Shown here piece after piece: positions 39,211 to 47,534 of a DNA stretch of 52,229 bases. This stretch comes from Candidatus Oleimmundimicrobium americanum (GTDB taxonomy: Bacteria > Actinomycetota > Aquicultoria > UBA3085 > Oleimmundimicrobiaceae), in NCBI GenBank assembly GCA_002366545.1, contig DFBH01000055.1, forward strand, positions 1 through 52,229. The letters are read 5' to 3'. Below the pieces are notes generated by a model, which saw only the letters and a program-made list of their open reading frames with translations, ran no database searches and had not been told where the DNA came from. The position numbers and the translations under genes were made by a program. Numbering within the stretch: position 1 is the stretch's first letter; each line of letters starts with the position of its first letter.

Positions 39211-39774
39211 ATGTTGAGGTTATTTGTAGCACTGGAGATTCCTGATGAGTTAAAACACGAAATTGCGTTGTTGAGCGGAAAATTAAACGAGGACATCAAA
39301 AACGCTAAATGGGTTCCCGAGAGAAATCTTCATTTAACTTTGAAGTTTCTGGGGCAGTGCGGGGATGAAATGCCGCTTGAGATCGAGTCCCGTCTTAAGG
39401 CTTTGACTAAAAAATTTAACCGTTTTAATTTTAGGTTAAGCGGTTTGGGAGCTTTTCCGTCAATTAAGAGAGCTCGCGTCCTCCATGTTGGCGTGAACGA
39501 GGGCAGGGAAAATATAATTAGTTTGCAGCACTCTATCAAGGAATCTCTTTATCAGGTTGGCTTTGCCAAAGACGAGAGAGAATTTTCTCCCCATATTACG
39601 TTTGCAAGGTTGAAAAATCCCTGTAACGTTGAGAGATTTTTAAAAAAAATGGATACGAGAGGTTTTTCAAAACGTTTTGTAGAAGTTAATAGCGTTAATC
39701 TTTTTAGAAGCCATTTGATGTCAAGCGGACCAATTTATGAGAAAATTTTAGAAATAAAACTAAAAGATGATTGA
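39211..39774 (+). CDS. thpR: RNA 2',3'-cyclic phosphodiesterase (2H family, LigT/ThpR)
   Basis: Two H-x-T-x motifs (HLTLKF, HITFAR). 187 aa. Confidence 0.9.
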   Translation: MLRLFVALEIPDELKHEIALLSGKLNEDIKNAKWVPERNLHLTLKFLGQCGDEMPLEIESRLKALTKKFNRFNFRLSGLGAFPSIKRARVLHVGVNEGRENIISLQHSIKESLYQVGFAKDEREFSPHITFARLKNPCNVERFLKKMDTRGFSKRFVEVNSVNLFRSHLMSSGPIYEKILEIKLKDD

Positions 39775-39799
39775 CATTCGAACCTATGTTCGATAAAAT
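39771..39799 (+). promoter_or_regulatory. SOS promoter: TTGACA, a 17-nt spacer containing a perfect Cheo/LexA box, then TAAAAT
   Basis: TTGACA at 39771-39776 overlaps the thpR stop. CGAACCTATGTTCG at 39779-39792 is an exact CGAAC-N4-GTTCG. TAAAAT at 39794-39799. Confidence 0.85.
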
Positions 39800-39907
39800 T
39801 TGTGGGTAAAGACATATAGGAGGAATTGAAAGTTGCTAAATAATCACCAAAACTTATCAAAATGGTAGACGTGGGGGCAGAAAGAAGTTAAAAGAGGAGT
39901 TAGATAT

Positions 39908-41215
39908 ATGAGAAAAGTTATACATGGTGAAATTTATAGCCCTGATTTTGATAATCTCAATAAATTAGTATCTGATTGGGCTTCTGCCTATAGGTTTTCC
40001 TTCTGTCGATTTCAGAAAGATAAATTAAGTTTCAACGAAGTTAGAAATTGGGCAAAGACAAAATATCCGTCCTTAAATACTCGCCAAATATCTGATGTGG
40101 TCACACAAGCACAAGGATTGTATTCAAGAGTTGAAGATAAAAAAGTAATATTTGGTGGAAGAAAATATTGGGACAAGTTAATAAAGAATGAGATATCTAA
40201 TGATGAGTGGAAATTCAAAAGAGATAACCAAATATATGTCAGAGGAGATAAAACTAAAAAAGGTAACCCAAATATCCGATTGTTAAACAAAAACGGTGGT
40301 TTTTATTTAAGAGTAACTATTGGAAACAGAAAATTCGAGGAGCATAAACTATTTGTCCCTGCTAAGTTTGAGGAACAATTAGTATCTTTATTCGGTTCAG
40401 GTAATCCTTATAATGTTCGTTTGATAAAAAAAGGCTCACAGCATTATAAAATGGTTATTGATTATGAAGTTGAAAATCCTCAAACAGTAATTGATTTTTC
40501 AAATGGAGTTATTGGCGTAGACGTAAACCCTGACAGGGTTGCAATTTCTGATATAAGGAGAGATGGAAATTTAATCAACTCTTTTTCTGTATTGAACAAT
40601 AGGATGTTTTTTGCATCAACGAACAAAAGAGATTATGAAATTGGTTGCATAGTTAAGCAGATTATGCAGTATGCTTTAAATAGAAATAAGGGAATAGTGT
40701 TTGAAAATTTGAAATTTAAGAAAGAATTTGAGAATCAAGGTAGAAGGTTTAATAGGATAAAGAGTAATTTTGTCTGGAAAAAGTTGCTTACATTGCTTGA
40801 GAGGAAATGTATTGAAAATGGTATTCAATATAAGAAAGTCAATCCCGCTTTTACTTCTGTTATAGGAAAATTTAAATATCAAAAAATGTATAATTTATCC
40901 ATCCATGAATCTGCCTCTTATATAATAGGCAGACGCGGATTAGGATTTAATGAGAAATTATCTCTTTATAAATATCCATCAAAATATGTGAAGGAAGTTG
41001 TTTTTGACCTTGCCGGAAATAAAACAAAACGAATTCACAGTTGGGCTTCGTGGAGAAAGTTAAGAGATAATTATAAAAAAGCCGTCCTCACAGGACTTCA
41101 GGGAAGAATGTCAGACCTAAAAGAGTCTGATGACAATCTCTGTTATGTAGGTGAGAACCCTACAGGCGAAGTCCTCTCAAAAGAACTGGTCTTGAGGGGC
41201 ATAAATGGTTACTAA
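39908..41215 (+). CDS. TnpB/Cas12-superfamily (IS200/IS605 OrfB-like) protein lacking the zinc ribbon and with an atypical RuvC-III motif
   Basis: RuvC-I-like VIGVDVNPDR; RuvC-II-like GIVFENLKF; NPAFTSVIG in place of the usual TS-x-x-C zinc-finger entry; IHESASYIIGRRGLG where D-x-D/N-AA-x-N is expected. No CxxC pair occurs anywhere. GAGGAG RBS 8 nt upstream. The gene is visibly more AT-rich than its neighbours. Confidence 0.7.
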   Translation: MRKVIHGEIYSPDFDNLNKLVSDWASAYRFSFCRFQKDKLSFNEVRNWAKTKYPSLNTRQISDVVTQAQGLYSRVEDKKVIFGGRKYWDKLIKNEISNDEWKFKRDNQIYVRGDKTKKGNPNIRLLNKNGGFYLRVTIGNRKFEEHKLFVPAKFEEQLVSLFGSGNPYNVRLIKKGSQHYKMVIDYEVENPQTVIDFSNGVIGVDVNPDRVAISDIRRDGNLINSFSVLNNRMFFASTNKRDYEIGCIVKQIMQYALNRNKGIVFENLKFKKEFENQGRRFNRIKSNFVWKKLLTLLERKCIENGIQYKKVNPAFTSVIGKFKYQKMYNLSIHESASYIIGRRGLGFNEKLSLYKYPSKYVKEVVFDLAGNKTKRIHSWASWRKLRDNYKKAVLTGLQGRMSDLKESDDNLCYVGENPTGEVLSKELVLRGINGY

Positions 41216-41258
41216 ACATCTATAGGAAGAAGAAAGGCTTCCTTCAAAGCTCATTATT

Positions 41259-41288
41259 TGGACCAAGGGTCCATTGTCCTCTGGACAA
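41259..41288 (+). repeat. 30-nt twin-hairpin cassette (TGGACC-aag-GGTCCA followed by TTGTCC-tct-GGACAA) in the TnpB-like/recA spacer
   Basis: Two abutting perfect hairpins, each with a 6-bp stem and 3-nt loop. The architecture is the same as the indel cassette at 43042-43071, and the TTGTCC/GGACAA stem is shared. Confidence 0.8.
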
Positions 41289-41315
41289 TTTGGTGGGTTT
41301 TGTAAACCAGGGGAA

Positions 41316-42362
41316 ATGGAACGCGACAAAGTATTGGAATTGACAAAAGAACAAATTGAGAGAAAATACGGCAAAGGCGCCATTATGAGACTTGGCGATA
41401 ATCCTTTTAAGCTTGATTACTCGGTAATTTCAACGGGTTCTTTAGCTTTGGATGTTGCATTGGGCGTGGGCGGGATTCCAAGGGGAAGGGTTGTTGAGAT
41501 ATTTGGGCCGGAAGCGTCGGGCAAGACCACTCTGGCCTTGCAAATAATCGCTCAAGCTCAAAAAACAGGGGGAGCAGCGGCATTTATCGATGCTGAACAT
41601 GCTCTTGACTCAGCGTATGCGCGGAACCTGGGAGTGGATGTAGATAACTTGCTTGTTTCTCAACCCGATACGGGCGAACAAGCACTTGAAATTGCAGAAA
41701 TGCTTGTTAGAAGCGGAGCTCTTGACGTTGTGGTTATTGATTCAGTTGCCGCGCTTGTGCCCCGAGCTGAGATTGAGGGTGATATGGGAGATTCCCACGT
41801 AGGTCTCCAAGCGAGGTTAATGTCACAAGCTCTGCGAAAATTATCCGGCGTCATCAGTAAATCTCAAACCTCTGCAATATTTATCAACCAACTACGAGAA
41901 AAAATAGGGATAATGTTTGGCAATCCCGAGGTAACTCCGGGTGGTCGTGCTTTAAAATTTTATTCTTCCGTGAGGATTGATATAAGGAGGATTGAGTCTC
42001 TCAAACAGGGGATTGATATTGTCGGAAACAGGGTTCGCGCAAAAATTGTTAAAAATAAAGTCGCTCCTCCTTTTAAAAAGGCAGAATTTGACATCGTTTA
42101 CGGCAAAGGAATTTCCAGAGAGGGCACTTTAATCGATATGGGTGTTGACCAAGGGATAGTGAATAAAAGCGGAGCTTGGTACACTTGTGGGGACGAGAGG
42201 CTTGGCCAGGGAAGAGAAAACGCAAAGCAGTTTTTACAGGAAAATCTCAAAATGGCCGATGAGATAGAAAAAAAGATTAAGGTTGCGGTTGGTTTAATTG
42301 AAAACGAAGAAAAAACTGATAAAAAAACCGATAAACAAGCAAAAAATAAAAGCATGGGTTAA
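41316..42362 (+). CDS. recA: Recombinase RecA
   Basis: [28 protein letters not shown]-terminus and Walker [11 protein letters not shown] prefer the ATG at 41316. The ORF-track TTG at 41274 lies inside the hairpin cassette and adds a non-RecA extension. The SD is weak and close either way. Confidence 0.95.
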
Positions 42363-42847: not shown

Positions 42848-42904
42848 ACCACCGGTTTATCCGGTGGGCACGGCGGTAGGCAGGTCGTGGCAACCCCTCA
42901 CCTC

Positions 42905-43311
42905 CGTCATTGCGCCTGTCCGCCTCTGGCGGGAGCCCTGGTAAGGGCGTGGCAATCTCGGTTTAGCCATAATAGCCAACTTTCTTTTTTGTTTATTCAG
43001 TTGTATTTTTTGTGGGTCGCACGCACTTCACGCTCGGTTGTTTGTCCAAAGGACAATCCTCCTCTGGAGGAATCCGCGACTTTACTCGCTCCGGGCGGGC
43101 CGAGAATAACTCGCTTGCGCTCAGACAGATTCTCGGGCGCTCACTTCGTTCGTCTGTCCGCCTTCAGCCAGAAAGAGGCTTGAGCCAAGGGTTCATCAGC
43201 CTCTGGCTGAGATGGTCCCCTGGACTACTGGAGGGCTTTCCGGCCATCCACTCGCTTCATCGGGGCGGCCTCAAATTTCGCCTTGTCCAACCCACCGGGG
43301 TTTTAAAAACC
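42905..43311 (+). repeat. Copy A of a GC-rich mosaic repeat of roughly 350-400 bp
   Basis: Aligns by eye with 47181-47534 from CGTCATTGCGCCTGTCCGCC through GGCAATCTCGGTTTA..., CTTTCTTTTTTGTTTATTCA.TTGTATTTTTTGTGGGTCG, GGGCCGAGAATAACTCGCTTGCGCTCAGACAGATTCTCGGGCGCTCAC and TTCATCGGGGCGGCCTCAA.TTTCGC to CCCACCGGGGTTT. Three hairpin-associated indels interrupt the alignment. Confidence 0.85.
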
Positions 43312-43342
43312 ATAATCAGTAAAAAGCTTTTATTTTTTTCCT

Positions 43343-43364
43343 GAAAGCTAACGGCTGGCAGCTG
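43343..43364 (+). repeat. NNNNGCT heptamer array (3 units)
   Basis: GAAAGCT AACGGCT GGCAGCT G. The paralogous position in the second island carries 4+4 units. Confidence 0.7.
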
Positions 43365-43498
43365 TATTCAAATGATATGGCAACTAGCGAATAGCAGATG
43401 GCGGGAGGAGCGTTAAGCGACGCGGCAATCTCTGGGTTACATTTTACATTTTTCATTATCGTTTTTATATTTTCATTTTTATTTCTTATTTTGAAAAA

Positions 43499-43629
43499 CC
43501 TGCCCGCCTTCAGCCAAAGGTTTCAGCCAAAGGCTGATGGTTCTCTGGACTACTGGCGGGAGTGACCAAAGGAAGCGCGGCAATCTCATCCTCCTCCCGC
43601 CCTCGATGGGAGGGGCGGGAGGAGGATGA
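43499..43629 (+). repeat. Hairpin-repeat unit with a 46-nt loop insert, followed by a purine/pyrimidine hairpin of about 19 bp
   Basis: CCCGCC (43503-43508), insert TTCAGCCAAAGG...GGACTACT (43509-43554), GGCGGG (43555-43560), then ...GCGCGGCAATCTC (to 43587). Then TCATCCTCCTCCCGCCCTC / GAGGGGCGGGAGGAGGATGA (43586-43629), which has one bulged G. Confidence 0.8.
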
Positions 43630-43955
43630 GACAAACAATGGCCGGTGGCTTTTCTGCCCTGTGGTTGGTGGTAGTTTACTTGGCTTTTGATTTTTATAAT
43701 TGACAACAACCGGTCTTTAATAATAATATGATTAAGAATTGTTTTTAAGTTAATAATGGTTGAATTTAAATAGTAGATGTTTTTAAGTATTGTTGGGATG
43801 TTAATATATTTACTTAATTAGTTAATCGATTGTTCATATAAATTTAAAGCTTAAGTTCAAGCTTTAAGATTTTAATTAAATATGGCTAAGAGATTTCCTT
43901 AAATAATTTAATTTATTTAAGGATGATTTGAATTTAATTAAGTAAATTAGAACTT

Positions 43956-47180: not shown

Positions 47181-47534
47181 CGTCATTGCGCCTGTCCGCC
47201 TTCAGCCAAAGGTTTCAACCAAAGGCTGATGGTCCTCTGGACTACTGGCGGGAGCGACCAAAGGAAGCGCGGCAATCTCGGTTTAACTATAATAGCTAAC
47301 TTTCTTTTTTGTTTATTCAATTGTATTTTTTGTGGGTCGAACACGCTCCACGCTCGGCCGTATCCGCGACTTTACTCGTTCCAGGCGGGCCGAGAATAAC
47401 TCGCTTGCGCTCAGACAGATTCTCGGGCGCTCACTTTGCTCGCCTGCCCACCTCTGGTGGGCTTTCCGGCCTTCCGCTCGTTTCATCGGGGCGGCCTCAA
47501 GTTTCGCTTTGTCCGACCCACCGGGGTTTAAAAG
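47181..47534 (+). repeat. Copy B of the GC-rich mosaic repeat (same orientation as copy A)
   Basis: See copy A. Compared with A, B carries a 46-nt insert in the first CCGCC/GGCGG hairpin (47201-47246). B lacks the 30-nt twin hairpin and the 67-nt insert that A carries. Confidence 0.85.

Follow-up and report, generated by a model that had tools for sequence, protein, structure and literature searches.

The spacer at positions 41216-41315 of the window (the whole stretch of DNA analyzed here, 52,229 nt) separates the stop codon of a 435-aa TnpB-like ORF (41213-41215) from the ATG of recA (41316). Three hairpins are present in this spacer exactly where the initial annotation had located them, namely AGGAAG-N8-CTTCCT (41224-41243), TGGACC-aag-GGTCCA (41259-41273) and TTGTCC-tct-GGACAA (41274-41288), and the last of these is followed by TTTGGTGGGTTTTGTAAACCAGGGG and then by the recA start codon. 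The hairpins had been interpreted as a candidate omega or guide RNA encoded at the 3' end of the TnpB-like gene, with a recA leader that modulates translation as the alternative. The features identified at this locus are the following.

39771-39799, + strand: native recA promoter TTGACA-17-TAAAAT, now upstream of the element (promoter scan, 11 of 12 matches)
39818-39823, + strand: host recA Shine-Dalgarno sequence AGGAGG, now the left flank of the element, in a TAM-like position (present in the empty site of L164-L167)
39824-39862 (about 39 nt), + strand: left-end remnant AATTGAAAGTTGCTAAATAATCACC..., 87% identical to L003:669-715, which lies upstream of the L003 tnpA
39863-39907, + strand: 3' remnant of the deleted serine-recombinase gene tnpA, with the Shine-Dalgarno sequence of the TnpB-like gene (alignable with the part of tnpA that encodes the C-terminus in L004, L003 and L161)
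39908-41215, + strand: TnpB-like gene (435-aa product; RuvC residues D205, E266 and H333; no C4 zinc finger), identified by NCBIfam, alignment and AF2/Foldseek
41084-41311, + strand: conserved structured RNA, an omega-RNA/reRNA-like scaffold (covariation, covariance model R1, strand specificity)
41084-41096, + strand: P0, a covarying hairpin
41111-41130, + strand: P1, with the invariant loop CUAAAAGA
41146-41164, + strand: P2
41173-41199, + strand: P3, the loop of which holds the pseudoknot strand 41186-41190
41224-41243, + strand: P4, the first of the three annotated hairpins
41247-41256 with 41291-41300, + strand: P5
41186-41190 with 41306-41310, + strand: pseudoknot between the P3 loop and the last bases of the element, which ends at 41311
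41259-41288, + strand: copy-specific 30-nt insertion in the P5 apical loop, consisting of hairpins 2 and 3 (loop-length comparison)
41289-41311, + strand: right-end terminus TTTGGTGGGTTTTGTAAACCAGG, near-invariant in relatives, with the crossover dinucleotide GG at 41310-41311
41312-41331, + strand: host flank GGAAATGGAACGCGACAAAG, comprising the residual recA Shine-Dalgarno sequence, the start codon (41316) and the codons next to it (exact match to the empty site on the right of the junction)
41316-42362, + strand: recA, intact (Pfam RecA, E = 3.6e-138; 97-99% identical to insertion-free relatives)

An IS607-family element in the recA ribosome-binding site

The borders of the element are defined by comparison with the contigs of four close relatives (L164-L167; RecA 97-99% identical), in which the genes are arranged in the order cinA-ligT-recA-recX and the ligT-recA spacer is only 53 nt long; the gene upstream of the element in the window is ligT as well, according to a Pfam search. 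The empty site in these relatives reads ...CATATAGGAGG/GGAAATG (the slash marks the junction) or, at greater length, ...TTGACAtcCGAACttatGTTCGaTAAGATttgtgggtaaagacatatAGGAGG/GGAAATGgaacgc, and the window contains about 1.49 kb inserted at this point (39824-41311), with the left junction ...catatAGGAGG/AATTGAAAGTTGCTAAAT... and the right junction ...GTAAACCAGG/GGAAATGG. A GG dinucleotide is found in the empty site AGGAGGGGAAATG and at both occupied junctions, AGGAGG/AATTG and CCAGG/GGAAATG, as predicted by the GG crossover of IS607 elements (PMC10711439). This alignment, which involves one directly verified empty site (the recA locus in the four contigs), shows the element inserted at the GG of the recA Shine-Dalgarno sequence (AGGAGG/GGAAATG), between the recA promoter and the ATG. 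The same insertion is found in contigs from two other samples. DNA similarity between copies of the element ends directly after ...AAACCAGG, the end of the terminus TTTGGTGGGTTTTGTAAACCAGG, and neither a second copy of this right end nor a second copy of the element is present in the 52-kb window. The AGGAGG at 39818 was considered as a potential part of the element and rejected, given that it occurs in the empty site.

These observations bear directly on the possibility that the hairpins evolved as a recA 5' leader, either an attenuator or a translational regulator. The stretch does lie immediately upstream of the recA ATG and, given that the pseudoknot strand ACCAG overlaps the residual Shine-Dalgarno sequence, the fold may affect recA translation in practice. 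However, the relatives with nearly identical RecA have only the 53-nt spacer, with none of the sequence of this stretch, and downstream of the TnpB-like gene this sequence and structure recur in over 50 unrelated contexts. On the evidence of the empty sites, a leader origin is already refuted, and we assign it a negligible probability. The same comparison accounts for the poor Shine-Dalgarno sequence close to the recA ATG in the initial annotation: it is indeed short, being the remainder of the native AGGAGGGG, which the element has split and reduced to AGGGG.

Full-length relatives of the element encode, immediately upstream of the TnpB-like gene and overlapping its start, a protein with MerR HTH and Resolvase domains (in L003, the tnpA ORF at 916-1509; Resolvase 8e-23, MerR_1 2e-06), and a RefSeq plasmid that carries a distant relative is annotated with an 'IS607 family transposase' followed by an 'IS200/IS605 family accessory protein TnpB-related protein'. 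In the window, tnpA is reduced to its last 45 nt or so, joined to the left-end remnant. By these sequence comparisons, the element at 39824-41311 is an IS607-family insertion sequence that has lost its serine-recombinase gene and, because tnpA is deleted, the copy in the window is non-autonomous, that is, unable to move by itself. The mobility of the family is apparent from the more than 25 distinct flanks among close relatives and from the multiple copies of distant relatives in Bacillaceae genomes. The relatives with 68-86% protein identity are located in unrelated contexts, never beside recA, and no conserved synteny of the TnpB-like gene with recA was detected in 160 loci, which makes domestication unlikely.

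Several other features of the left part of the family are worth recording. The full-length elements contain an internal promoter TTGACT-17-TATATT (L003 750-935 and the equivalent regions of L004, L091 and L136) and, in the same four elements, a conserved ORF of about 53-61 aa (MEIKELTKDY...) located between the left end and tnpA, for which no Pfam match was found; both are deleted in the window copy. A short TTG ORF at 39833 was examined as a possible conserved peptide and rejected, given that more distant relatives do not share the start codon. The L086 and L105 loci share a common left flank and have different right flanks, which suggests rearrangement or recombination between copies.

Elsewhere in the recA neighborhood, the segment of about 790 nt between recX and rny (42874-43666) is missing in L164 and L167; L165 and L166 have part of it. 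It is GC-rich in an AT-rich setting and contains internal direct repeats (43154-43235 and 43500-43560), a perfect 19-bp hairpin (43584-43631) and three occurrences of the motif GCGGCAATCTC, with a related motif near 47200; no Rfam match was found within 42874-43666.

A conserved RNA structure at the right end

When folded alone, the region 41216-41330 has a minimum free energy of -32.3 kcal/mol (z = -1.74), and 14 of 200 shuffled sequences are equally stable, so the fold of the single sequence is not clearly beyond chance. It includes a fourth helix, in which AAGCUCAUUA pairs with UGGUGGGUUU, enclosing hairpins 2 and 3. Given that the single sequence is indecisive, the significance of the stretch derives from the comparison with homologous loci. 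In this comparison, the RNA consists of six stems and a pseudoknot, spans the last 130 nt or so of the gene together with the spacer, and ends exactly at the boundary of the element. The hairpins listed in the initial annotation are thus real and the list is incomplete, lacking the conserved helix formed by 41247-41256 and 41291-41300 around hairpins 2 and 3, the pseudoknot between 41186-41190 and 41306-41310, and the portion that extends back into the ORF.

Covariation was assessed in two alignments. The first (A2) is a plain MAFFT alignment of the last 170 nt or so up to the boundary in 27 loci, in which the structure consisting of P1-P5 and the pseudoknot was tested. The stems in this alignment change by compensatory substitutions and the loops are fixed; 94.2% of the cells are paired, compared to 41-57% with slid partners, and 24 pairs show double changes, compared to 4-11 with slid partners, with none of 500 shuffles reaching the observed values. 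The covariance model R1, built from A2, matches 72 loci, once each and in every case at the 3' end of a TnpB-like gene, including relatives down to about 37% protein identity and one archaeal MAG; its single match in the window covers 41110-41311, and no standalone copies of the RNA were found by this model in the window or in the contigs of the relatives. In the second alignment (A4; 60 distinct sequences), 96.0% of the cells are paired (40-52% with slid partners) and 33 of the 39 pairs show double changes, although these numbers are somewhat inflated because the sequences were fitted to the nested helices of R1. The pseudoknot, which is not part of R1, is paired in 99.3% of the A4 cells, with the states CTGGT:ACCAG, CTGCT:AGCAG and CTGAT:ATCAG. 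The stem of P4 takes the forms GGUAG/CUACC, GGGCG/CGUCC, GGCAG/CUGCC and GGAAG/CUUCC in homologues around a conserved loop of the GAAAGG type. The structure partly overlaps the coding sequence, which adds to the conservation and does not yield compensatory pairing.

These data also allow us to weigh two other explanations of the right end. It could be mainly a DNA site, recognized by the serine recombinase or serving as another DNA-level signal, with the hairpins as by-products and no guide RNA, considering that TnpA requires binding sites and the GG crossover at the ends of IS607 elements (PMC10711439) and that the terminal 23 nt are almost invariant, as would be the case for a recombination site. 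However, double-stranded recombinase sites need no intrastrand complementarity, and yet the great majority of the pairs are compensatory. Furthermore, the pairing is strand-specific: across homologous loci, there are 277 G·U and 17 A·C combinations, an excess indicating that it is the sense strand that folds, which argues for an RNA over a double-stranded DNA site. Finally, the structure reaches about 130 nt into the ORF and includes a long-range pseudoknot. We therefore regard a mere DNA site as improbable. Highly improbable is an intrinsic terminator or an mRNA-stabilizing 3' structure of the TnpB-like gene, for which the stable hairpins directly 3' of the stop codon could be taken. There is no U-tract, and the + strand scan finds no terminator here; nor does it show a recA promoter downstream of the element, so that recA must be transcribed through this region. 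In addition, the structure shared by the family begins deep within the coding sequence, and some relatives have an ORF that reaches the end of the element. Known RNA families and a group I intron (IStron) were also considered and rejected: no Rfam model reached its gathering score anywhere in the window, and a local search of 39700-41450 gave no match with E<=1.

Taken together, the comparison of homologous loci shows a conserved, covarying sense-strand structure that stops exactly at the border of the element, which agrees with the proposal of an RNA structure at the 3' end of the gene. In view of the anatomy that matches characterized IS607 TnpB systems, we infer that this structure is the scaffold of the guide RNA of the element (omega RNA or reRNA). 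The original omega RNA assignment holds with respect to hairpin 1, the 3' tail and the position of the guide, and fails with respect to hairpins 2 and 3: among orthologues, hairpin 1 covaries, whereas hairpins 2 and 3 are absent from the 59 other distinct sequences.

Hairpins 2 and 3 together constitute a private insertion of 30 nt flanked by repeated ATTTGG, so that its borders are ambiguous by a few nucleotides. The P5 loop is 34 nt long only in the window; it is 1-6 nt long in relatives with at least about 47% identity, with the exception of L125 (14 nt), and 3-17 nt long in the group with about 38-40% identity. Even the closest relative (86% protein identity) lacks the 30 nt. No related sequence was detected in the window or the loci, and blastn-short against all loci gave only chance-level matches; the GTCCTC...GGAC core of the insertion resembles P0, which could be a coincidence. 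Folding with and without the 30 nt leaves P1, P2, P4 and P5 in place, and the insertion adds only two small hairpins at the tip of P5. Comparable private insertions are found in the P4 or P3 loops of other copies, so that the apical loops seem tolerant of insertions, although an impairment of the RNA by the 30 nt in P5 is conceivable.

After the stop codon, distant relatives with 30-37% identity, namely the multi-copy elements of Bacillaceae (L008-L055) and L168 on a Peptoclostridium plasmid (3120-3340), have a long conserved non-coding region of a different kind; in L168, this region still ends with ...AACCAGG, and an ATG follows 7 nt later. The superfamily probably has two RNA architectures, of which this would be the second.

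Overall, we interpret the stretch 41216-41315 as the non-coding right end of an IS607-family insertion sequence of about 1.49 kb that includes a guide-RNA scaffold, and assign this reading a probability of roughly 80%.

The TnpB-like protein and related systems

The identification of the upstream ORF as a TnpB-like gene was borne out by NCBIfam matches, the family alignment and structural comparison with Foldseek. The NCBIfam matches (guided_TnpB, 1.1e-16; TIGR01766, 6.2e-16) are both partial and cover only the central RuvC part of the 435-aa protein; the N-terminus matches Pfam SSO2105_N, and Cas12f1-like_TNB matches at model positions 1-28 of 60 only, with a score under the cut-off. A literature search on SSO2105 returned nothing relevant. 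In the alignment of the protein with 23 relatives (24 sequences), D205 of RuvC-I and E266 of RuvC-II are invariant, and the RuvC-III position is occupied by an invariant H333-E334 in place of the Asp. No C4 zinc finger (CxxC...CxxC) is present in this alignment, with a single Cys between E266 and H333. A PDB sequence search with the 435-aa protein yielded no meaningful match, so only the fold comparison is informative. The AF2 model (pLDDT >85 for most of residues 1-350, and poor for 351-435) has Cas12f as the best Foldseek match (E = 3e-10), followed by Cas12e, Cas12g and Cas-lambda, and thus the predicted structure shows a TnpB/Cas12 fold, a split RuvC-like nuclease whose N-terminal part is of the WED/REC type. 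The ORF is intact, and the window protein departs from the family at only 5 of 158 conserved columns. The invariant L-K-E (DLKE) at residues 404-406 coincides with the invariant RNA loop CUAAAAGA at 41117-41124, and the conservation of the C-terminal tail may be partly driven by the overlapping RNA.

A His in place of the RuvC-III Asp and the lack of a zinc finger are the traits of RIIIr-4, a major TnpB clade (Altae-Tran et al., PNAS 2023; PMC10691335), and both are shared by the protein in the window and the 23 aligned relatives; this likeness is one of residue traits set beside the published description, rather than a placement in a tree. Clade RIIIr-4 is presumed to be active because the replacement of the Asp is conserved (PMC10691335), and the window protein is a putative nuclease. 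No experimental test of a RIIIr-4-type TnpB was found in the literature searched, and the main text of PMC10691335, as far as searched, makes no mention of this RNA or of a preference for insertion into Shine-Dalgarno sequences.

A close parallel in overall anatomy is the IS607 TnpB system of ISXfa1 (Yoon et al., NAR 2023; PMC10711439), in which a right-end RNA of about 150 nt with a pseudoknot runs past the transposon boundary and takes its guide from the flank, and the TAM is G-rich, GGG, and includes the crossover GG. In the present family, too, the relatives carry tnpA with MerR HTH and Resolvase domains upstream of tnpB, GG is found at both junctions and in the target, the left flank is G-rich, and a structured RNA with a boundary-adjacent pseudoknot overlaps the 3' end of tnpB and is placed for a right-flank guide; this resemblance is known from sequence and predicted structure. 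In contrast to ISXfa1, the protein has a RuvC-III His instead of Asp and no zinc finger, this copy lacks tnpA, the family scaffold is longer, at about 200 nt (228 nt in the window, where the private insertion adds to it), and nearly all insertion sites have a complete GGAGG on the left and a start codon on the right. Another likeness is to the homing of IS605 elements with TnpB and omega RNA (ISDra2, G. stearothermophilus; see also bioRxiv 10.1101/2023.11.20.567912), where the guide RNA is likewise located at the 3' end of tnpB, the TAM and target are likewise recreated only at the empty site, and the proposed role is element retention. Those systems differ from this one in the Y1 transposase with single-strand 'peel and paste' transposition, in the TAM, and in an unrelated RNA sequence and structure. 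The feature thus appears, with high probability, to be the guide-RNA end of an IS607-type TnpB element, one of a known kind in an unusual genomic position.

Insertion into Shine-Dalgarno sequences and a candidate guide at recA

The position of the element at recA is typical of its family. An ORF in the same orientation, 40 codons long or more, begins 0-12 nt past the right end (...CAGG) in 20 of 24 distinct insertions, compared to 21% for control positions after AGG in the same flanks (p = 1.5e-10), and GGAGG (as AGGAGG, GGGAGG or TGGAGG) directly precedes the left end at about 22 independent junctions, in relatives down to about 35% identity; the junctions surveyed are those of the window (39818-39823 and 41308-41318), L003, L004 and L083-L146. 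At recA, the empty site demonstrates that GGAGG is host sequence. Combined with the junction counts, this indicates that members of the family insert, in sense orientation, into Shine-Dalgarno sequences. The pattern could be caused either by the specificity of the recombinase or the TAM, or by the survival of tolerated insertions. With some reserve, we lean toward the first of these in the specific form that this IS607-like family with a His-type RuvC-III and no zinc finger is programmed for insertion into Shine-Dalgarno sequences, the target or TAM being a sense-strand GGAGG a few bases before a start codon. No description of Shine-Dalgarno targeting by IS607 or another serine recombinase was found in the literature searched.

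If the scaffold functions as in the IS607 and IS605 TnpB systems, transcription through the right boundary would extend into host DNA, at this locus the start of recA, and the guide would be a copy of it. This makes GGAAAUGGAACGCGACAAAG (41312-41331), also written GGAAAUGGAACGCGAC, the predicted guide, a role proposed on the basis of the behavior of the IS607 reRNA (PMC10711439). The ribonucleoprotein would recognize and cut the unoccupied site, consisting of GGAGG (the predicted TAM) followed by the flank sequence (the predicted target), and recombinational repair after the cut would restore the element. At the occupied locus, the target is preceded by AAACCAGG and would be protected if the TAM requires the full GGAGG. 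RNA processing, the identity of the TAM, protein binding and cleavage are all inferred by analogy with the characterized systems.

The suggestion that a guide would lie over the recA start region is supported, as a guide read from the flank would cover 41312 onward. The overlap with recA follows from the insertion point and is an ordinary outcome of insertion; it provides no evidence of recA regulation. The host flank 41312-41331 is unique in the window.

Expression of the element in this copy would most likely come, by read-through, from the recA promoter. This promoter contains, at 39779-39792, a LexA/Cheo-type box CGAAC-CTAT-GTTCG, which we take to be a LexA site on the strength of the established CGAAC-N4-GTTCG consensus, and the same promoter and box are located directly before recA in the relatives with the empty site. 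Neither a terminator nor a separate recA promoter was found by the + strand scan in 41216-41315, and between the recA promoter and recA the scan gives only weak matches, one promoter-like (39927-39955, 9/12) and one terminator-like (39977-39990), both at the 5' end of the TnpB-like ORF. From the location of the promoter upstream of the element and a scan without strong signals before recA, we propose that a single LexA-controlled transcript spans the TnpB-like gene, its 3' RNA and recA. As the recA promoter now points into the transposon, the TnpB-like gene and its RNA would be SOS-inducible, and expression of recA would require read-through.

Another reading is that the immobile copy has been domesticated in the manner of TldR, being retained because the protein and its RNA attach to the start region of recA, at the DNA or the mRNA level, and thereby tune RecA or the SOS response. 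The tnpA gene is lost while the ORF is intact, the same insertion is present in contigs from two other samples, the unit is located under a promoter with a LexA box, and the flank-derived guide matches the recA start. The TldRs have lost their catalytic residues and are conserved next to partner genes. Like TldRs (named in PMC13418256), which are nuclease-dead TnpB-like RNA-guided repressors, the present system combines a TnpB-like protein with a 3' guide RNA the guide of which matches the 5' region of a host gene. Unlike in TldRs, however, none of the catalytic-type residues typical of the clade has been lost, the TnpB-like gene shows no conserved linkage to recA, and the insertion is missing from four close relatives. 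The guide matches recA as a result of where the element inserted, the guide being identical to the flank in every insertion of this element family. Moreover, the target at the occupied site lacks an upstream GGAGG. We consider domestication to be decidedly improbable, and return to the reading of the locus as the right end of a mobile element with its guide-RNA scaffold.

For annotation, this reading implies that the spacer 41216-41315 should be described as a transposon end rather than as a recA regulatory leader. For the large TnpB lineage with a RuvC-III His and no zinc finger, it provides a well-supported RNA secondary structure, exact element boundaries, and a predicted TAM and guide, which are the inputs for testing RNA-guided cleavage by the variant active site. 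If insertion into Shine-Dalgarno sequences is indeed programmed, each guide RNA of the family would be a 'start-codon-region' guide, and the host Shine-Dalgarno sequence would end up before the element, whereas the terminal ...CCAGG would return a partial one to the host gene. In this copy, the TnpB-like gene, the guide RNA and recA would then belong to one LexA-controlled transcript, in which maturation or binding of the guide would compete with recA translation; transcripts matured into guide RNA or bound by the protein would be unavailable as recA mRNA. With the transposon located between the SOS promoter and recA, a putative RNA-guided nuclease would come under DNA-damage control.
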